Shown here: in pieces, positions 4,904-58,564 of the stretch
How positions within the stretch are numbered: position 1 is the first letter of the stretch
How the letters are laid out: each line of letters begins with the position of its first letter
UHGV virus genome: UHGV-0218015
Direction: 5' to 3' (one strand)
DNA from: a virus
Length of the DNA: 64,000 bases
Translations under genes and position numbers: made by a program
Notes under the pieces: generated by a model
Told to the model about the DNA's origin: nothing
Seen by the model: only the letters and a program-made list of their open reading frames with translations
The model's database searches: none

Positions 4904-4948
4904 CTCCGACCCCAGAAGGGTCGGAGTAAGCTCGAATTATTTTTTTTT
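4904..4948. terminator. bidirectional terminator between convergent genes
   Basis: ctccgaccc-cagaa-gggtcggag with A-run upstream and T-run downstream. Confidence 0.7.
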
Positions 4949-34857: not shown

Positions 34858-35403
34858 ATGGGGGTAGCATCCGGCTGGGTTGGAAGCTCAGCAAAGGCAG
34901 TAACCGGTCAGGAGTGGATGAGTGTGGCAGGTAATAAGCTTAAACTGAGCACGCCATTTAACATGTCGCAGATGGTCGGGCGTAGCGTAGAGGATCTTAA
35001 ACTCGTTGTAGGCCGATCAACCTATGTTGTTTTGGTGCAGGCTACGAACACGCAGTGGGTTCCTATTACAAATACGTATGGGGGGTATTCGAACAACTCT
35101 ACAACAACGGGTGCTGGTTCTACAGTATCGAATCGTGTGCAAACACAAAATGCGGCCGGTTCGGTGTCAGGTTCGATCTTGGGTTGTAGCGTCACACATC
35201 TTAGCCAAGTACAAAATACTGGTATTATCTACATGGCCCTAACCAATGGACCAAATCAGAATATTACGCTTTCGTTTAACGGAACGAAGATTACTTTTCT
35301 ACCGTACTCCTACAGTAACGGCGTCCGGCGCTATGAGGCTAAGACGGCAACCAACTGGTTATTTAATCAGAACGGTGCAACAATTTCAATAAGTGTAGTC
35401 TAA
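34858..35403 (+). CDS. tail-fibre-associated protein (paralog of 35657..36163)
   Basis: N-terminus MGVASGWVGSSAKAVTGQEWMS matches the paralog; sits immediately after the fibre gene. Confidence 0.45.
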   Translation: MGVASGWVGSSAKAVTGQEWMSVAGNKLKLSTPFNMSQMVGRSVEDLKLVVGRSTYVVLVQATNTQWVPITNTYGGYSNNSTTTGAGSTVSNRVQTQNAAGSVSGSILGCSVTHLSQVQNTGIIYMALTNGPNQNITLSFNGTKITFLPYSYSNGVRRYEAKTATNWLFNQNGATISISVV

Positions 35404-35656: not shown

Positions 35657-36163
35657 ATGGGGGGGGTAACCGGTTCGTGGGTCGGTTCTTCGGCCAAGAA
35701 CGAAACGGGCGAACAATGGATGAGCGCTGCTGGTAGTAAATTAGGATTGGGTAGACCTTTTATGATGAGTCAAATGGTGGGACGATCTATGGGCTGTAAA
35801 ATTGCAACCGCTGCATATAGCGATTCTTTAGGTAAGAAATGGGGCGCAGTAGGACCAAGCTGGCCGTTAAACCAGAAAAATCAGGGAACCATTCAAAACG
35901 CGGGTAACTGCGGGGTGGGAACTTTAGTAGGTATTGAGTTACAGTTAACGACGATAGTTGCCAACGCAAAGCCTACTTTAGCGGTTTACTTACAAGGAGG
36001 CAGAGCCTCTAACATTACCGTAAATTTAGGTGGTAACACCTGCGCGCTGGCCTATCAGCAGGTTATTAACGGACAGCATTATTACTGGACTAATAACATC
36101 AGCGCTGCGTTCCAAAACGTGATGAAATCGACAGGCGCACTGCGTGATTTGAGAATTAGCTAA
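35657..36163 (+). CDS. tail-fibre-associated protein (paralog), G8 tract at codons 1-4
   Basis: ATG GGG GGG GTA start; N-terminus matches 34858 gene. Confidence 0.45.
   Translation: MGGVTGSWVGSSAKNETGEQWMSAAGSKLGLGRPFMMSQMVGRSMGCKIATAAYSDSLGKKWGAVGPSWPLNQKNQGTIQNAGNCGVGTLVGIELQLTTIVANAKPTLAVYLQGGRASNITVNLGGNTCALAYQQVINGQHYYWTNNISAAFQNVMKSTGALRDLRIS
35659..35666 (+). repeat. G8 homopolymer at codons 1-4 of the 35657 gene
   Basis: atgggggggggta; the paralog at 34858 has only G5 here. Confidence 0.7.
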
Positions 36164-36197: not shown

Positions 36198-36207
36198 GGG
36201 GGGGGGG
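36198..36207 (+). repeat. G10 homopolymer in 5' region of the 36262 gene
   Basis: Preceded by AT-rich hairpin ttttcaac...gttgaaaa (36167-36190). Confidence 0.7.
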
Positions 36208-36261: not shown

Positions 36262-36774
36262 GTGGAAAAATTCACACCAGATTTATCACTAACTTCACTT
36301 AACATGGTTATTTCACTGGTTAACCATGACCTCCAACTTGACTTGCAAGAGAACGAGGTTGAAGTCAGTGACGTAAAAACCAGTGATGAAATGGATCGTG
36401 ACTCCACTGCCATTGTAAAGATTAAACGTCCTGGAAACAGAACGTTGCAAATCTACTACAACCGTTTAACCGCAGAGCGGTGGTTAAACCAACAACCTAT
36501 TCTGGTAAAAGTAAGAGGTGAAGGGTTTAATGCACACGATCTTATCGAATCCGTCAATGCCGTTTGTGGTGCTAACTTACAAACCGACGATTTAACCGAC
36601 CAGTCGTTCACGGTAGGTAAAGACGCGGTAACGCTTAGCATCGCTCCGAATTCCATCGCTTATAAAGGACAGTTCTCCGTGGTGGTTTTCGGCCCAGATG
36701 AAACACCGTGTGGCATCGGTGATGATTCTGTCGTGTTGACGTTTGACAATAAAATCTTAACTTTTGGAGAGTAG
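36262..36774 (+). CDS. RBP-module accessory protein (paralog of 29611..30171)
   Basis: GTG start after AGGAGG; sits directly upstream of the second RBP gene. Confidence 0.45.
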   Translation: MEKFTPDLSLTSLNMVISLVNHDLQLDLQENEVEVSDVKTSDEMDRDSTAIVKIKRPGNRTLQIYYNRLTAERWLNQQPILVKVRGEGFNAHDLIESVNAVCGANLQTDDLTDQSFTVGKDAVTLSIAPNSIAYKGQFSVVVFGPDETPCGIGDDSVVLTFDNKILTFGE

Positions 36775-51110: not shown

Positions 51111-51119
51111 GGGGGGGGG
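51111..51119 (+). repeat. G9 homopolymer in intergenic hairpin
   Basis: Between the two four-gene-family members. Confidence 0.7.
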
Positions 51120-51170: not shown

Positions 51171-51701
51171 ATGGCAGCTACTAACCAGATGATGTTAGTT
51201 GCGCTTTATAATGCTGCTAACACAGAGCTACCGCATCAGGTCACTGATAAAGAGGTAACTTTTGGTCAACCTGTCGCTCTTGAAAAGGGCGATAAAAATA
51301 CCAAAGTTACCATGACCGCACGTACAGAGTCTGAAAATTTTAAAGGCGCAATCGAACTGCATTACGATCGTCTGGAACCTGGCGTTATCGGACGCATTGA
51401 GGTAACGGACGATTTGGCTCTCTGGACTGGAGAAAACGAACTACGCGACCGATTACAGTTCTACATCAATAAAGTAAAACCTGACGACTCTATCGCGCCT
51501 GGTGACGTTGAGTACACCACCGAAGACCAGAAAGACGAACACGATAGCGTCACTCTGCGTACGGTAACTTGTACCGTTACTGAAAAGAACCTCCGTTATA
51601 AACCGGGTGTAATGGCAACTTTCGTAATTACGCCGAAAGTTGTTGATAATCGTATTGACCTGGCCACCACCGACGGTGAACTTGACGGCTTTACTGCTTA
51701 A
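51171..51701 (+). CDS. hypothetical protein, four-gene family member
   Basis: Paralog of 50573 (ENFKGA.ELHYDRL, GELDGFTA); bidirectional terminator follows. Confidence 0.5.
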   Translation: MAATNQMMLVALYNAANTELPHQVTDKEVTFGQPVALEKGDKNTKVTMTARTESENFKGAIELHYDRLEPGVIGRIEVTDDLALWTGENELRDRLQFYINKVKPDDSIAPGDVEYTTEDQKDEHDSVTLRTVTCTVTEKNLRYKPGVMATFVITPKVVDNRIDLATTDGELDGFTA

Positions 51702-52445: not shown

Positions 52446-52993
52446 TCATCTTCTCCTTTAACTAAACCTAGCTCAATTAACAATTCAAAATCGATTTGGC
52501 GAAATTTGTTATCAAAACCAGAATCCCAATCGATGTGTAATCCTTGTCGTTCTTCATCGGTAAGTTCAGGATAAATTAAATCATGGAACGCTTCACGTTC
52601 CTCGTAAAATCCATCGATAGTAGAATCTGGATTCCGCATTGCGTAAATCGTGATGCCCGGAAAGGATAATCCTAATGCTGTTATAGATTCGACGCTTGGT
52701 TCTTGCAAGGCCCTGCGTAATAGCACGATTTTATGTCGTGGAAAATCTAGTACACGTTGTTCAAACCCAGGATTCCGTTTCTCAATTTCTGTAACTGAAA
52801 GATCGGTGAGTTCTGTGCAATACATTGGGATAACTACAGTTACTCCGTGGCGAATTAATAATCGTTTAACATCGTCAGTGAAGTCTTCACCATTAATTTG
52901 CACATAACAACCAAACAATTTTGTAGTTTCTAAAAATTTTTCCAGAAAACGGAATTTACGCTTCGTAATATTGTGGATCAGAATTGGCTTCAT
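52421..52993 (-). CDS. hypothetical protein
   Basis: ORF overlapping both neighbours. Confidence 0.45.
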   Translation of the reverse strand: MKPILIHNITKRKFRFLEKFLETTKLFGCYVQINGEDFTDDVKRLLIRHGVTVVIPMYCTELTDLSVTEIEKRNPGFEQRVLDFPRHKIVLLRRALQEPSVESITALGLSFPGITIYAMRNPDSTIDGFYEEREAFHDLIYPELTDEERQGLHIDWDSGFDNKFRQIDFELLIELGLVKGEDECLLLTKA

Positions 52994-54278
52994 CTTTGGT
53001 TTCTCTCAATTGTTTTTCTTTCTGGGTACGTTCACGTACGCAACGAGGGCAATAACACATGCTATTGTCATGAAAATCTTTCACTGACGTCGTGCCCATT
53101 TTCTGTTTCCAATATTCCGCAACCATCAACTTTGCAGTTGTCCAGCCGCATTGACGGCGTTCAGCGTGATAAGCTTTGCGATCTTCTAGCGTCCCTTCTC
53201 CATTCTCGTAAGATGCAGCCGCACAACTACCACAAGCGTGCTTCATTGGACAACCTAAACAGGTTTCAGGATAGTTGGTGTATTGCGTCTGAATCTCTTC
53301 CAGCAATTTCCCGTCATCTAAGCTAACGAATTCCCGGCCAACTAATTCAAATACGGCAGAACGTGATGTTACGGTTGACATGAAACGGTTACAACCGAAG
53401 ATCTTACGATCAAATCCTAAGCAGGTCATGTGTGTTAACGTACCGCAGAACGGGCGTAAACGTTCTGGATTCAAACGTACAGTATCGTTATACAATAACT
53501 GATCACGCCAGTTTGGTTCCCAGATAGTATCAAAATCTAACCCGTCTGGAATGATGTGCGACAAAGTGTTACGTGGGTTGGTGTGTAAGCCCTTCTCAAC
53601 CCAATAATCAACCACGTCCATCATCTGCAATGCGATTGAAGTAGCCATGCTCCGTGGCATAATGTCTTCGAAGGTTACGTTGCCAGAAATAGTTCCGCCG
53701 CCAGTAATATCAATTAATGATTTCATTCCAGCAGCATAGAACGGTAACGTTTCCAACGTAAAGGTCGCTTTTACACCAAGTTCTGCAATACCGACTTCTT
53801 TTAAGTAGTTATAGCCCCGCACAGCGGCCTCGTAAGATCCTTCACGAGTTGTTGTAAAAATCCGGTACTTATCGTGCGATTCGGGCAATCCATCAATAGA
53901 CACGCCGATAGAAAGCCTGTCTTTCCAACGTTCAATAATTTCTCTATTCAAAGGTCTATCTAACAACGTTCCGTTAGTAGAGATGCTAAACATAAACGGC
54001 CGATTATGTTTTTCGCATAACTCTTCTGCGGTTTCAAATGCCGCCTTTAATAGTTTAGGCTGCATAAACGGCTCACCACCGATGATATCGATAACGACCT
54101 CGATGTTTGTCAGATCTTTATCTCGTTCAAAACAAGCGTGTAGAAAATCAACAATATCCGCCGCTTTGTTATTACGGGGATACTTACGTTCGTAACAATA
54201 CTCACAGTCCAAGTTACACGATAAATTTGTAACAATTTGATAAGTCAGTTGTTTTGGATAACTATTTTCTTGACTCAT
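52956..54278 (-). CDS. radical SAM enzyme with SPASM-type C-terminal domain (anSME-like peptide maturase candidate)
   Basis: N-terminal CNLDCEYCYE (CxxxCxxC), GGEP; C-terminal Cys clusters CLGCPMKHACGSC and CYCPRC typical of SPASM/twitch domains. Confidence 0.75.
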   Translation of the reverse strand: MSQENSYPKQLTYQIVTNLSCNLDCEYCYERKYPRNNKAADIVDFLHACFERDKDLTNIEVVIDIIGGEPFMQPKLLKAAFETAEELCEKHNRPFMFSISTNGTLLDRPLNREIIERWKDRLSIGVSIDGLPESHDKYRIFTTTREGSYEAAVRGYNYLKEVGIAELGVKATFTLETLPFYAAGMKSLIDITGGGTISGNVTFEDIMPRSMATSIALQMMDVVDYWVEKGLHTNPRNTLSHIIPDGLDFDTIWEPNWRDQLLYNDTVRLNPERLRPFCGTLTHMTCLGFDRKIFGCNRFMSTVTSRSAVFELVGREFVSLDDGKLLEEIQTQYTNYPETCLGCPMKHACGSCAAASYENGEGTLEDRKAYHAERRQCGWTTAKLMVAEYWKQKMGTTSVKDFHDNSMCYCPRCVRERTQKEKQLRETKDEANSDPQYYEA

Positions 54279-55200
54279 TTTCCGCCCCTCTATTACGCTC
54301 TGCCATCACTACACGACGAATGTACTCGTAAGCTTCTACACCTATTGAGGAGGCTAGTTGGTTACACCCTGCTTTTGTAGTTATTGGTACATTTTTAAGT
54401 TGGTTTTCTTCCCCGTCCGCGTCTATCCTGAGACTTTCGCTACAGACATTACAAGCATGATCGAAGAATCTGTTTACAATAAAACCGCAGTCTCTAGAAT
54501 TTAGAACGTTTAATCTTTCTATATTCTCCTGAATTCTAAAATACCCGTAAATAAAGTTCATAACGTGATCGGGAGATAACGGTTTTGGCATGTTTTTATC
54601 TAGTAATAAGGACATGGAACGAAAACCGTAATGATAGATAGCAGTATGTAATTGAATGATATCTTCATGCCATCTTTTGTTGGATAAATTCTCCCTCGTA
54701 ACAACAGCCCAAGTGTTAACATTATTCAAGCTGTAAATTACTTCTAACGCTTCATGACAATTATCATCAATAAAGCGCTTAAAAGGCCGTTCGGAAAGAT
54801 TAAACCCATCGATGCTAACATATATAGCATCGAATTGTTTTAACAACGGTAGATGCGATTTACGCATTTTTAAACCGTTCGTGAACATCTGGTGTTTGAG
54901 TTCAGGACGGATCGTTTTTAATTCGTCGACAAACGCCTCAATCTTTCGAGTTGCCAGTAGCGGTTCACCGCCAGTCCACTGAATTTCAGTAATGGTTGGG
55001 TTAGACGCCAACGCTTTCAAAATTCGTTCACGTTGAAACTCTCGCGGAGAATCTTCACGATGCATGTAATAGGCTCCGCCGCAGAAGCTACAGTCCAGAT
55101 TACATTTGGATGTAGCAACTACGGACAATACGGTGGGTTTATTGTATAAACGATTCGATAACCTTGGCTCTACGTCGGTTGTCATTGCAGGTGAGTCCAT
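54262..55200 (-). CDS. radical SAM enzyme (paralog B)
   Basis: TSKCNLDCSFCGG and GGEPLL; paralog of 57235..58149 with identical DNA blocks. Confidence 0.7.
   Translation of the reverse strand: MDSPAMTTDVEPRLSNRLYNKPTVLSVVATSKCNLDCSFCGGAYYMHREDSPREFQRERILKALASNPTITEIQWTGGEPLLATRKIEAFVDELKTIRPELKHQMFTNGLKMRKSHLPLLKQFDAIYVSIDGFNLSERPFKRFIDDNCHEALEVIYSLNNVNTWAVVTRENLSNKRWHEDIIQLHTAIYHYGFRSMSLLLDKNMPKPLSPDHVMNFIYGYFRIQENIERLNVLNSRDCGFIVNRFFDHACNVCSESLRIDADGEENQLKNVPITTKAGCNQLASSIGVEAYEYIRRVVMAERNRGAENESRK
54514..54597. repeat. 84-bp block identical to 57478..57561
   Basis: Identical string inside radical SAM paralogs B and A; two more shared blocks of ~38 and ~54 bp near 54838/57813 and 55081/58025. 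Confidence 0.7.
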
Positions 55201-55207
55201 CTATTTT

Positions 55208-56095
55208 TTAAATATAGCCAATGGATAACAAAGGATCGTCGTAAGCGTTAACTCCAGGTTTTAATACAAACGGTGAATTGTAAGCCTCAATAATACGATT
55301 AAGGTCTTTATAACGCACGTTTAAACGTTCTAGATCCGCTAACGTTACGTTACGTTCCAATACCGCCGACACTGCCGCTTTTTCTTCATCAGTTAACGTG
55401 ACTTTCGTCATTAAGAAACTAACAAGTTTCGCTAAATCTGCTTCCGATGACGGATGTTCACCAATACGTGTTTGAATTAAATGCTGCATCCATGGTTTAC
55501 GAATACGTTTTGTGATTTCATGTTCATCTGTAAGGGCAACCCATACTGAACGTTCACGATCCCACATAAATTTGTAACTGTACGCCATCAGATCTGCTAA
55601 ACAGTTGATGCCAAGTTCCTCGTAACCTTCTATTTCAATATACGGTTCAGTATCAACATAGTTTTTTGTTTCTACAGGAACCAGGGCATAAAAGTACGGG
55701 AATGAACCAAGATAGTCTGGAGACCACCAACGTCGTGCTACAGGCTTCGCATTCAACTCTTTAAATGGCGTAAAGAACAATTCCAAATCTACAGAATTAT
55801 TCAGAATACCGTCACTAAAGAAATATTTACCGTCAACCAATTTACCGCGTAAATCTGAATCACCGGTAAACACCACTACGCTTTCTGCTGTCAGATCGCG
55901 TATTTTAAAAGTGTTTTCTACTGAATAGTTATTGCGATCGGTAAAAAAACGACCACGCACTTTGGGCCATTCGCCAGGTAACTGGGTTAACAAACGAACT
56001 TTATCTTCCAAATGAGCGCGTATTGAATCGGGGGAAGAAATATGAAGTGGGTGGTTGAAAATTGTTTTATAGGCTAAATGCAAATCGTTTTTCAT
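55208..56095 (-). CDS. hypothetical protein (295 aa)
   Basis: ORF between peptide genes and radical SAM genes. Confidence 0.45.
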   Translation of the reverse strand: MKNDLHLAYKTIFNHPLHISSPDSIRAHLEDKVRLLTQLPGEWPKVRGRFFTDRNNYSVENTFKIRDLTAESVVVFTGDSDLRGKLVDGKYFFSDGILNNSVDLELFFTPFKELNAKPVARRWWSPDYLGSFPYFYALVPVETKNYVDTEPYIEIEGYEELGINCLADLMAYSYKFMWDRERSVWVALTDEHEITKRIRKPWMQHLIQTRIGEHPSSEADLAKLVSFLMTKVTLTDEEKAAVSAVLERNVTLADLERLNVRYKDLNRIIEAYNSPFVLKPGVNAYDDPLLSIGYI

Positions 56096-56107
56096 TGATT
56101 ACTCCAA

Positions 56108-56626
56108 TTATTTTACGGTCAATCTGACGTTCAAGGTATAGAACCCGCCACGCCATTGCCTGCCGGTAACTTCAAATTCTGCAGTAAAGCCGTTTGATTT
56201 ACTCGGTTGCTGCTTAATCGCCATGCTTCCGCCGGAATTACTTAATACTTCTAATGAGATAGAAGCAGAAGATGCATTACCGATAGAGTCTATCTTAAAA
56301 CTAGCCGCGTCTGTAAAATTAACAGTGATACCATTACCCATTGCAACTTGAGGGTAGGCGTAGGACTTTCCAGACAGTAACGATTTAAAGACCCTTATCG
56401 GTTTCTCTCTACCGGTTGACGTTACGCATTGAATAAAGACAGCCCCAGTAGAGAAATTGATACGAACAGTATCTTTAGCGTGTAGCTTAGACTCAACATA
56501 AACAACGGCTTTGTTGTCGTAGGTTGGTCTTGAAGGGGTTGGCGTAGAACCACCGCTAGAGGGCTTACTTACCCCCCCCCGCCCCCTTACTACAGCTACC
56601 GCTGCACGACCAACTACATCCGCCAT
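56108..56626 (-). CDS. beta-rich domain protein, possibly expressed as a fusion to peptide P3
   Basis: Annotated ATG lies inside the P3 coding region; body is +1 relative to P3 across a G9 tract; Pro/Ser/Thr/Gly linker then beta-rich sequence. Confidence 0.4.
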   Translation of the reverse strand: MADVVGRAAVAVVRGRGGVSKPSSGGSTPTPSRPTYDNKAVVYVESKLHAKDTVRINFSTGAVFIQCVTSTGREKPIRVFKSLLSGKSYAYPQVAMGNGITVNFTDAASFKIDSIGNASSASISLEVLSNSGGSMAIKQQPSKSNGFTAEFEVTGRQWRGGFYTLNVRLTVK

Positions 56627-56774
56627 TACAATTATAATGACTTAAAGGTAATCCTGCGAGATTGTTGGTTGAGGAAACCGTTCCTTGGTTTGCAATATAG
56701 TTGTTTGCATTAGCGGTGGTGATATATCCCTCCGCCGTTACTAATCTGTCGCGTATGTTTTTAAGACTTATCAT
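56565..56774 (-). CDS. Cys-rich precursor-like peptide P3 (69 aa)
   Basis: Leader ISLKNIRDRL and core NCNGGCSWSCSGSCS similar to P1/P2; ends in the G9 tract. Confidence 0.55.
   Translation of the reverse strand: MISLKNIRDRLVTAEGYITTANANNYIANQGTVSSTNNLAGLPLSHYNCNGGCSWSCSGSCSKGAGGGK
56572..56580 (-). repeat. G9 homopolymer on the coding strand at the P3 / beta-domain junction
   Basis: Minus-strand reading aag ggg gcg ggg ggg ggt aag taa; a G5 run lies just 5' of it. Confidence 0.7.
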
Positions 56775-56777
56775 TTC

Positions 56778-57176
56778 TTATCTTCCAGTACACGATTGCT
56801 GACATCCGCCTCGACATGAACCTGAACATGTTCCGGTGCAACTACTTGAACAACCGCCCGAGCAATTACCTGTGCACCCTCCTGAGCAGGTACTGCTACA
56901 ACCTGTGCAACCTGTACTACATCCTGAAACACAGTTCGCTGAACAGGAAGAACCGCAGCCGCCGGAGGCGTTGCCGGTACAGCCGCCCGAACAACTTGAG
57001 CACGTCCAGCTACAGCTACCTCCACAGTCATAGTGATTTCTCGGCTGTCCTCCAAACAGATCGCTATTATTAGTGGCTTTACCACGAATATAGTTCTGCA
57101 CCGCACCTGTATTTTTTAATGCAGTAGAGTCTATGTTATCTAGCCGGGCCTTTAAAGAAGATAAACCAATCGCCAT
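56778..57176 (-). CDS. Cys-rich precursor-like peptide P2 (132 aa)
   Basis: Leader LSSLKARLDNIDST; core DCGGSCSWTCS followed by ~20 Cys spaced every 3-4 residues among G/S/T. Confidence 0.6.
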   Translation of the reverse strand: MAIGLSSLKARLDNIDSTALKNTGAVQNYIRGKATNNSDLFGGQPRNHYDCGGSCSWTCSSCSGGCTGNASGGCGSSCSANCVSGCSTGCTGCSSTCSGGCTGNCSGGCSSSCTGTCSGSCRGGCQQSCTGR

Positions 57177-57234
57177 TTTAATACCTACTGGTTTAGTGCC
57201 CCCTAGGACACATTATAATTCACTTTCTGTAAAA

Positions 57235-58149
57235 TTATCGTAGTTTTTCTGAGACTCTATTCTTAGCCCCTACCACACGACGTATATAGTCGTAAGCATC
57301 TAATCCAACCTTTCTGGCCAAGTCACTACAGCCGTGTTGCGTTACGATTTCAACGTTCTTTACTTGGTTCTGGGCACCGTCAGACTCAATGCGAAAACAA
57401 CGACTACATGTGTTACAGGGTTCATCAAATAACGCATTTAGCGTAAACGCACATTCACTTCGATTGGACGAATTCAGTCTTTCTATATTCTCCTGAATTC
57501 TAAAATACCCGTAAATAAAGTTCATAACGTGATCGGGAGATAACGGTTTTGGCATGTTTTTGTCCAAAACCAGCGACATCTCACAAAAACCATAATGGTA
57601 AATGTGGTTATGTAACGCAATTATATCTTCGTACCAACGTTTATCCCCAATACGCTCGCGTGTCAAAACCGCCCAAGTACGAATATTTTTCAATTCGTAA
57701 ATTGTCTCCAAAACCTCGTATTGTTTTTCTTCGATAATCCGCATGAACGGACGCTCTGATTCTTTGAATCCATCCATGCTAAAAAAGATACTATCAAAAC
57801 CCTTTAACAACGGTAGATGCGATTTACGCATTTTTAAACCATTGGTATACAGGTAATGTTCGCAACGAGGATACTTCTCCCTTATCTCTTCTATAAGGGT
57901 ATCAATTTTACGCGTGGCAAGTAATGGTTCGCCCCCTGACCATTGGATATTTGTGATAGTCGGGTTATTTTCCAGCGCCTCGATAATACTTTCCTTTTGT
58001 ACTTCTGCGGTTGTATCCTCTCTATGCATGTAATAGGCTCCGCCGCAGAAGCTACAGTCCAGATTACATTTGGATGTTGTAATCACGTTTAACGTTCTCG
58101 GATTACTGTAAAGCTTATCGGATACCGTCGGTCTAGTAAGTTCTTCCAT
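57235..58149 (-). CDS. radical SAM enzyme (paralog A)
   Basis: TSKCNLDCSFCGG and GGEPLL; C-terminal CNTCSRC. Confidence 0.7.
   Translation of the reverse strand: MEELTRPTVSDKLYSNPRTLNVITTSKCNLDCSFCGGAYYMHREDTTAEVQKESIIEALENNPTITNIQWSGGEPLLATRKIDTLIEEIREKYPRCEHYLYTNGLKMRKSHLPLLKGFDSIFFSMDGFKESERPFMRIIEEKQYEVLETIYELKNIRTWAVLTRERIGDKRWYEDIIALHNHIYHYGFCEMSLVLDKNMPKPLSPDHVMNFIYGYFRIQENIERLNSSNRSECAFTLNALFDEPCNTCSRCFRIESDGAQNQVKNVEIVTQHGCSDLARKVGLDAYDYIRRVVGAKNRVSEKLR
57478..57561. repeat. 84-bp block identical to 54514..54597
   Basis: See partner copy. Confidence 0.7.
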
Positions 58150-58168
58150 TCGAATTGATCCTTATTTT

Positions 58169-58564
58169 TTATGGGTTAGAACAACCACCTGCACAAGAAC
58201 CACTACACCCCGAGGAACAACGTCCAGCACATCCCCCACTACAAGTCCCACTACATCCTGAACAACCACCCGAACACGTTCCGCTACAACCACTGCATTG
58301 ATTACCACACGCAGAGGAACAGCTTCCTACGCACACCGATGTACATGTACCTGAACAACTCGTACAACCATGCGTACAACCGTTTGAGCATGTCCAGCTA
58401 CAGCTACCTCCACAATCTAATCGACCGGGTGTCCAACCTGAAAATGAATCAGCAGCGTTATGTGCTTTCGACGCAACTTGCGGATCAACACGTGGGCCAG
58501 TTGCCATTTGGTTCTCTACGTTGGTGATTCGGTCACGCACATTTTTAACACTGATCGCCATCAC
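58169..58564 (-). CDS. Cys-rich precursor-like peptide P1 (131 aa)
   Basis: Leader ISVKNVRDRITNVEN; core DCGGSCSWTCS plus ~20 Cys in CSG-type repeats. Confidence 0.6.
   Translation of the reverse strand: MMAISVKNVRDRITNVENQMATGPRVDPQVASKAHNAADSFSGWTPGRLDCGGSCSWTCSNGCTHGCTSCSGTCTSVCVGSCSSACGNQCSGCSGTCSGGCSGCSGTCSGGCAGRCSSGCSGSCAGGCSNP

Follow-up and report, generated by a model that had tools for sequence, protein, structure and literature searches.

The window analysed here, a 64,000-nucleotide stretch of the virus genome UHGV-0218015, carries on its minus strand a short cysteine-rich gene, P3, that ends in a run of nine G residues, beyond which the DNA stays open in a different reading frame. 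The P3 protein consists of an N-terminal region of about 47 amino acids, the segment CNGGCSWSCSGSC with four cysteines at CXXX spacing, and the C-terminal end KGAGGGK; its frame was under strong purifying selection as judged by the ratio of non-synonymous to synonymous substitution rates (dN/dS). The minus strand at the end of the gene reads ...AGC TGT AGT AAG GGG GCG GGG GGG GGT AAG TAA G..., in agreement with an earlier note on this DNA, according to which P3 stops right after a G5-C-G9 stretch. The list of open reading frames (ORFs) likewise bore out that a 172-codon ORF at 56108-56626 (hereafter ORF172) is open through the tract in the +1 frame, with an ATG inside the cysteine core of P3. 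Editing the tract in silico gave a P3 of 69 amino acids with G9 and of 68 with G10, and fusions of 221 amino acids with G8 and of 222 with G11, as had been anticipated for the loss of one G. The product envisaged for such a fusion, joining leader, cysteine core, a linker of Gly, Pro, Ser and Thr and a beta-rich domain, was found encoded by natural in-frame alleles (222 amino acids in contig L013 and 221–222 in five cluster members, described below).

The segment beyond the tract, designated module X1, begins with VSKP, which was nearly invariant, and a Gly/Ser/Thr/Pro linker (about 56510-56572; linker peptide PSSGGSTPTPSR), followed by a predicted all-beta domain of about 130 residues. Two overlapping stop codons, TAAGTAA, adjoin the tract and end P3 within two codons in either wrong frame, as ...GGG with G10 and as ...GGGK with G9 (Table 1). 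This heptamer was kept in all loci bearing X1. The G9 tract is not a chance feature: overlapping matches to G7 in the window numbered 12 against 1.98 expected, a count reached in none of 100 shuffles, and a census of G/C runs fell from 134 of length 4 to 30 of length 5, two of length 6 and none of length 7, followed by outliers of 8, 9, 9 and 10.

Table 1. Positions of the P3 locus, its neighbouring genes and the other poly-G tracts within the window.
Feature	Position	Strand	Remarks
P3	56565-56774	-	69 amino acids; phage family phrog_6085 (PHROG match 7.9e-25); from the ORF list
G9 homopolymer	56572-56580	-	Gly-Gly-Gly in P3; putative variable switch
G5 run	56582-56586	-	from the sequence
C between the G runs	56581	-	from the sequence
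P3 stop codon TAA	56565-56567	-	from the sequence
TAAGTAA overlapping stops	56565-56571	-	ends P3 right after the tract in both non-fusion frames
AAGGGGG, Shine-Dalgarno-like purine stretch	56582-56588	-	directly 5' of the tract; AAAGGAG in sister species; from alignment
Module X1	56108-56572	-	154 codons and stop; without own start codon or ribosome-binding site
Upstream part of ORF172 (MADVVGRAAVAVVRGRGG)	56573-56626	-	alternative-frame reading of the P3 core; no real coding segment
Surrounding operon	52956-58564	-	downstream of fibre-like virion proteins, in the tail-fibre block
P1	58169-58564	-	131 amino acids; phrog_6085
Radical SAM protein, 304 amino acids	57235-58149	-	
P2	56778-57176	-	132 amino acids; phrog_6085
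Conserved protein, 295 amino acids	55208-56095	-	
Radical SAM protein, 312 amino acids	54262-55200	-	
Radical SAM/SPASM protein, 440 amino acids	52956-54278	-	
Gp38_N-type adhesin-like gene	35657-36163	+	G8 tract (35659-35666) directly after the ATG; Pfam Gp38_N from precomputed matches
Intergenic G10	36198-36207	+	55 nucleotides upstream of DUF7941 gene 36262-36774; G9-G11 and one interrupted allele
Intergenic G9	51111-51119	+	52 nucleotides upstream of DUF7941 gene 51171-51701; G9, G10 or G12 among contigs

Tract length was compared among near-identical genomes, using the neighbouring 295-amino-acid protein as an anchor to gather ten contigs of about 225 kb from different metagenome samples. 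G9, giving a P3 of 69 amino acids with the module in the +1 frame, was present in the window and in four contigs (L009, L014, L015 and L016), and also in L006 and in a contig from JGI (L035). G10, giving a P3 of 68 amino acids with the module in the other wrong frame, was found in L007, L010, L011 and L012, while L008 carried an interrupted, out-of-frame run of length 10 (G4AG5). In L013, whose flanks are near-identical to those of the window, a run of G11 encoded the in-frame fusion of 222 amino acids. The surrounding 6 kb contained few single-nucleotide polymorphisms across the 11 genomes, and the G tract was one of only three sites of insertion or deletion, the other two being A-runs. One of these, at 55209 by the stop of the 295-amino-acid gene and before the next radical S-adenosylmethionine (SAM) gene, showed an A5/A6 polymorphism in 5 of the 11 genomes, and the other, at 58171, an A6/A7 difference in one. 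Of the three mechanisms offered by the earlier note, the phase-variable DNA switch thus gained direct support, and in none of the relatives were P3 and the downstream ORF found as separate, independently initiated genes.

The same three states recurred in protein cluster lists, which are partial and whose contigs are not independent. Among the contigs listed, about 45 had the module in the +1 state (calls of 164–173 amino acids), about 95 had it in the other wrong frame (calls of 77, 96 and 129 amino acids) and five encoded in-frame fusions of 221–222 amino acids (P0031, P0032, P0038, P0039 and P0041) with the junction ...CSKGAGGGVSKP.... P3 itself was listed as a form of 69 amino acids ending in GGGK (P0010, 37 contigs) and as two forms of 68 ending in GGG (P0009, 38 contigs) or GAGGR (P0005, 43 contigs), all three known from protein lists and not from DNA. 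In the G10 alleles the module frame is shut by TAG TAA just before the tract, and gene callers resort to internal methionines, which yields the 77-, 96- and 129-amino-acid calls; these fragments and ORF172 in public assemblies are pieces of one P3-module gene. Uninterrupted runs of G9 to G11 were kept between lineages whose synonymous sites are saturated, and the interrupted alleles are frame-fixed variants.

Selection on the module was assessed from sequence divergence. dN/dS was 0.094 between the window and L004, a contig of a sister species (47 synonymous and 20 non-synonymous differences), and 0.167 between L004 and L005; synonymous divergence was saturated over the 462 nucleotides, linker insertions and deletions were in multiples of three, and the ORF was intact in all lineages, pointing to strong purifying selection on X1. 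Upstream of the tract the picture differed, the 17 codons of ORF172 having a dN/dS of 1.5–1.7 while the identical nucleotides read in the P3 frame gave about 0.03. In the module frame, no ATG, GTG or TTG occurs beyond the tract before codon 78 of the 154. By this analysis coding constraint in the module frame begins at the tract, where there is no route for starting translation. Because the constraint starts there and no means of initiation is at hand, the module appears to be makeable only as a fusion to P3. The ATG inside the P3 core (56624-56626), which the earlier note had taken as the only upstream start for ORF172, did not hold up in this role: it is a by-product of the Asn-Gly codons AAT-GGN and is lacking in L035, where X1 and G9 are present and Asn is encoded as AAC, and in the sister-species contigs L028 and L029.

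The junction was further compared with a sister species (L004, L005, L028 and L029), whose flanks were 97–98% identical among themselves and shared about 69–70% identity with the window. Between tract and 295-amino-acid gene, the segment was X1a in L004, X1b in L005 (63% identical to X1a), X2 in L028 and X3 in L029. Identity was about 50% between X2 and X3 and between either of them and X1, a level at which they count as unrelated; pairwise BLASTP among X1, X2 and X3 gave marginal, colinear similarity (E 0.01–0.07), from which no homology is claimed. X1 was 86% identical between the two species, whose flanks were only about 70% identical. The cassette has therefore been transferred from one species to another, and the tract marks its 5' boundary. 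The tract in the sister species was GCA followed by G11, or G9. In L029 (P0045) a G11 run is in frame with X3 and is followed by TAAATAA, which, like TAAGTAA, supplies stops in both other frames, and in L028 (P0044; 10 contigs, 62 cluster members) a broken run, GGC GGA GGG GGA GGG, fixes the X2 fusion in frame. The junction accommodates at least three interchangeable cassettes, of which module X1 is one. In SPN3US, Proteus phage 7 and pEa_SNUABM_29, P3 has 68 amino acids and ends in GAGNR, encoded by GGA GCG GGG AAT CGA TAA with only G4, and the 295-amino-acid gene lies 35 nucleotides after P3; SPN3US-type phages have neither module nor long tract. Since tract and module occur together and the fusion is constitutive in one lineage, the fusion is arguably the biologically meaningful product.

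This junction was the only place at which homologs of the module were found, in clusters P0001, P0002 and P0003 at 96%, 90% and 60% identity. No match to the module was obtained by tblastn against GenBank phages, by a peptide-pattern scan of IMG/VR or by a DNA-pattern scan of GTDB genomes; a scan of JGI metagenomes returned the single locus L035, and a look-up of the window's exact 172-amino-acid product gave no record. Any resemblance of X1 to cadherin-like/Big_9 repeats is weak: an hmmsearch with X1 detected a Big_9/Cadherin_4 repeat protein (8.3e-11 summed over 10 repeats), but hhalign gave a probability of only 5.7%.

The other long G-runs of the window were also inspected. All four runs of at least eight are located in the host-recognition region, on the sense strand of the genes around them, and are variable in length. 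The tract in the Gp38_N-type gene ranged from G8 to G11 in ten near-identical contigs, the gene being called as 168 or 169 amino acids or as a truncated 124, and it looks like a second frame-switching poly-G tract. This gene follows that of a 1479-amino-acid tail fibre and is a paralogue of the gene at 34858-35403. The two remaining tracts are intergenic and may be length-dependent promoter or terminator elements. Both have a CCCCC run downstream and both precede DUF7941 genes, which are paralogues; at 51111-51119 the CCCCC run begins 9 nucleotides downstream in a hairpin-like arrangement, and one contig breaks off at this tract. Apart from the G-runs, homopolymers longer than seven nucleotides are limited in the window to three T9 runs, at 4940, 15322 and 29586.

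Taken together, we consider it probable that the G9 run acts as a contingency locus of the hypermutable poly-G type, by which a C-terminal cassette without promoter or start codon of its own is either joined to the CXXX-repeat protein P3 or left off it. The tract combines all the features of such loci that can be judged from sequence, namely a long run beyond chance expectation, an uninterrupted repeat, length differences between genomes and an altered product. Slipped-strand mispairing during replication of the phage DNA would alter its length, reversibly and at a high rate. With G9 or G10, P3 would stop at the overlapping TAAGTAA with its ancestral length of 69 or 68 amino acids, and with G8 or G11 the Gly run would read through into the Pro/Ser/Thr linker and the beta-rich domain of about 130 residues to give a product of 221–222 amino acids. 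A phage population would then consist of subpopulations with and without the module, a form of bet-hedging. The cassette itself is swapped through recombination that breaks at the tract on the 5' side. We infer that X1 acts in host recognition or adsorption because of the tail-fibre neighbourhood, the diversity of cassettes, the second tract in the Gp38_N-type gene and the weak resemblance to cadherin-like/Big_9 repeats.

Several observations weigh against this interpretation. In-frame alleles were rare (about 4% of the listed contigs, and 1 of the 13 loci inspected in the species of the window), and all tract variation seen was between assemblies. The intergenic G-tracts were equally variable, so that variability alone is no proof of selected switching at P3; the extension of the finding to a set of poly-G tracts weakens the case for specific selection at this one, and part of the variability could be homopolymer noise from sequencing or assembly. 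Rare in-frame alleles together with a strongly constrained module would also fit expression through slippage at the RNA level. As to module function, searches with X1, X2 and X3 against Pfam, PHROGs and PDB sequences returned nothing meaningful, and an AlphaFold2 model of X1, built from an alignment of four sequences, was all-beta with low confidence (predicted local distance difference test score, pLDDT, of 46.8).

An alternative that is possible, if on the unlikely side, is programmed recoding, in which the phage-encoded RNA polymerase would add or drop a G, or ribosomes would slip on G9–G10, so that mostly free P3 and a set fraction of fusion are made from every genome, as for lambda G/GT or T7 10A/10B; DNA-length variation would then be incidental, although recoding could also act together with a DNA switch. 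This would account for a module with a dN/dS of 0.09–0.17 that is nevertheless out of frame in about 95% of the listed contigs, since every tract length lies one nucleotide from an in-frame transcript. The tract would suit slippage as well: its GGG repeats allow perfect GGG-to-GGG re-pairing in either direction, and in G10 alleles a stop codon follows the run directly. Two nucleotides upstream of the run, AGGGGG or AAGGAG occurred only in module-bearing lineages, module-less phages having CGTGGAG or CACGGTG, and this Shine-Dalgarno-like stretch is a candidate recoding stimulator. The +1 stimulator of Escherichia coli prfB is AGGGGG, which the sequence upstream of the P3 tract resembles. The stretch may, however, simply reflect the choice of Lys-Gly codons, and RNA folding downstream of the tract was modest (z = -2.3), with no conserved stimulator established. 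Programmed ribosomal frameshift sites have a fixed frame relation, whereas here the module lies in the +1 frame with G9, in the other wrong frame with G10 and in frame with G11. Since the module is found in either wrong frame among natural alleles, a fixed ribosomal frameshift is a poor fit: one directional shift cannot serve both, only bidirectional slippage by the polymerase could, and the bacterial transcriptional slippage known to us uses A or T runs. Furthermore, the fusion is encoded directly in L028, where it is fixed, and by the natural in-frame alleles of L013 and L029.

A combination of both levels is also conceivable, but we regard it as doubtful. DNA slippage would set the genotype, slippage by the phage's own RNA polymerase or by ribosomes, helped by AGGGGG or AAGGAG, would set the stoichiometry, and the CXXX-repeat protein, crosslinked by radical SAM enzymes, would be made both free and as a covalent, thioether-stapled virion anchor for an exchangeable receptor-binding cassette. 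If this were true, a core like that of ribosomally synthesised and post-translationally modified peptides (RiPPs) would be the structural adaptor through which jumbo phages achieve modular recognition of their hosts.

Homopolymer error in sequencing or assembly would turn the split into P3 and ORF172 into an artefact of a gene that constantly encodes 221–222 amino acids. Long G-runs are error-prone, every G-run of at least eight differed between assemblies, intergenic ones included, one contig breaks at a tract, and many contigs come from one metagenome re-assembly project. The out-of-frame consensus was, however, present in about 140 listed contigs from ENA, NCBI isolate assemblies, Logan and JGI, produced with different assemblers, against the few in-frame ones noted above. 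Error would leave unaccounted for the conserved double stop TAAGTAA/TAAATAA and a P3 length equal to that in module-less phages. Substitution-interrupted alleles (G4AG5 in L008 and two similar places, and the 43 contigs with P3 ending in GAGGR) are real variants fixed out of frame, and tract lengths at three sites did not co-vary within a sample. Pure sequencing error is thus unlikely, given the out-of-frame consensus across sources, the conserved double stop and the interrupted, frame-fixed alleles, and we hold the constant-fusion account as a whole to be improbable.

Very little can be said for ORF172 as an independent gene started at ATG 56626 and overlapping the P3 core. An ATG-initiated ORF of 172 amino acids is open in the window, L004, L005 and L006 and is annotated by gene callers, but the overlap evolves in that frame as if unconstrained, the ATG is lost in L035 and kept in SPN3US-type phages that have no module, no Shine-Dalgarno sequence was found before it, unlike for neighbouring genes, and the module frame is closed in G10 alleles; independent initiation was accordingly rejected on the selection analysis. 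Least credible of all, and rejected on the same analysis, is a decaying pseudogene remnant of an inserted gene, an idea prompted by a module that is out of frame and startless in most genomes and contradicted by its low dN/dS, its linker indels in multiples of three and its intact ORF in all lineages.

Besides P3, the operon encodes two further proteins of phrog_6085, P1 and P2, with Cys at every fourth residue; both scored above the cut-off of 20 bits for TIGR04114, the Cys-rich CXXX repeat family (20.1 and 22.3 bits), while P3 had no match to the NCBIfam hidden Markov models. The best NCBIfam match of the 440-amino-acid radical SAM/SPASM enzyme was TIGR04115, the CXXX-repeat maturase (3.4e-34, 118.9 bits, cut-off 350), with PapB also among the best matches; the enzyme appears related to the TIGR04115 family without qualifying as a member, and P3 is presumed to be a radical SAM substrate. 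Three radical SAM genes are present here and two in SPN3US, the extra 304-amino-acid gene lying between P1 and P2; it is clearly paralogous to the 312-amino-acid gene, and the stretch TSKCNLDCSFCGGAYYMHRED is common to both. In SPN3US (L017, 8999-9334) and Proteus phage 7 (L001, 3016-4045) P1–P3 are unannotated, and SPN3US_0166 (111 amino acids) is an alternative-frame ORF over P2 and probably a mis-annotation. Distant relatives of P1 and P2 (P0055–P0070; 185–226 amino acids) have a larger N-terminal domain and a coiled-coil-like segment, then a conserved N..L.GQ...HY(D/R)C.GGCSWTC motif and a C-terminal CXXX repeat, and for one of them there was a weak match of CBM_5_12 type (E 0.016). The arrangement is fibre-like and suggests that the family has a structural role and not that of secreted peptides.

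The window derives, as far as its sequence indicates, from an undescribed SPN3US-like (Seoulvirus-type) jumbo phage. A megablast search of the locus against GenBank phages gave no match, no close relative was found in the GenBank phage collection, and identity of the window to SPN3US, Proteus phage 7 and Erwinia phages was about 67–75%. Near-identical contigs of about 222–230 kb from this phage and its sister species (L004, L007–L035) occurred in many human-associated metagenome assemblies, and further ones in isolate assemblies at NCBI that bear the labels Salmonella, E. coli and Shigella. This may be an undescribed species of wide distribution, which perhaps accompanies isolates. Relatives in the SPN3US-like group have been used or proposed for biocontrol of Salmonella and Erwinia, and hidden heterogeneity in adsorption proteins would bear on host range and resistance. 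The results also correct the annotation of ORF172 and of the 77-, 96- and 129-amino-acid fragments in public assemblies, and identify phrog_6085 proteins that are unannotated or mis-annotated in SPN3US-type genomes.

A literature search turned up no account of this locus, of the P1–P3 proteins or of poly-G variation in SPN3US-like phages, and the locus is best placed by comparison with better-known systems. The CXXX repeats of P1 and P2 and the adjacent 440-amino-acid enzyme recall CXXX-repeat/radical SAM/SPASM systems (TIGR04114 and TIGR04115, ranthipeptide maturases and PapB). Unlike in those systems, the enzyme scores far below the cut-off, P3 contains no more than four Cys, the genes are part of a virion tail-fibre block, and fibre-like N-terminal domains are found in relatives. 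To our knowledge, a globular domain C-terminal to the core is not a feature of the CXXX-repeat class. The phrog_6085 Cys-rich proteins would be tied to modular display in the tail-fibre block, suggesting a structural and not an antibiotic role for this RiPP-like system.

Phage structural proteins are known to be extended C-terminally by programmed frameshifting, as in lambda gpG/gpGT, T7 10A/10B and the Cps and Tsh proteins of Listeria phage PSA (+1), and Fraser and colleagues are said to have described, in 2006, Ig-like domains appended by frameshift. P3 shares with these a common N-terminus and a long form with an extra, often beta-sandwich, domain, X1 being predicted all-beta; their frame relation is fixed and their ratio set by the ribosome, whereas here that relation varies from genome to genome and some alleles are in frame. 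Programmed transcriptional slippage operates at A9 in Thermus dnaX, at T9 in Shigella mxiE, in insertion sequence (IS) elements and in the G insertion of the paramyxovirus P/V gene. Like these systems, the P3 junction has a homopolymer of at least nine (here G9–G11) between two frames, and would give products from more than one frame. It differs from the bacterial cases, which involve A or T runs, in having a G run and in that the polymerase would be the phage's own multisubunit enzyme.

Closer parallels are contingency loci of phages, and the tract resembles a bet-hedging switch such as has been demonstrated to date in only a few of them. In T2 and T4, simple-sequence repeats undergo reversible +/-1 frameshifts by polymerase slippage and provide bet-hedging (Gomez, Barrick and Waters, 2025, 10.1101/2025.10.21.683753). 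The P3 tract is likewise a simple-sequence repeat within a phage gene for which slippage frameshifting is proposed. The agt tract described there is an A run of about 9 nucleotides through which an enzyme gene is knocked out or restored, while the tracts described here are G9–G12 in a tail-fibre region and one of them, unlike those loci, fuses two coding segments. Campylobacter phages have hypermutable poly-G tracts and show phase variation (Sorensen et al., 2021, Cell Rep 35:109214; cited in PMC10579305). The likeness lies in several long G-runs in host-recognition genes, whose length shifts the frame and produces phenotypically different subpopulations. In the phage studied here, an SPN3US-like jumbo phage of an enterobacterial host, the junction tract differs in that it toggles a C-terminal extension instead of switching an entire gene: the overlapping stops built into both off frames leave a complete short protein in every state, and the extension is exchangeable. 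Such a switch would never turn the gene off, the cassette being added only occasionally. With its four variable tracts, this phage would add an enterobacterial SPN3US-like jumbo phage to the Campylobacter phages in which poly-G phase variation has hitherto been shown. Distinctive of the P3 tract among these systems are its position at a junction, the stops in both wrong frames, the exchangeable cassette and, as the partner of that cassette, a CXXX-repeat protein that is the presumed target of radical SAM enzymes.

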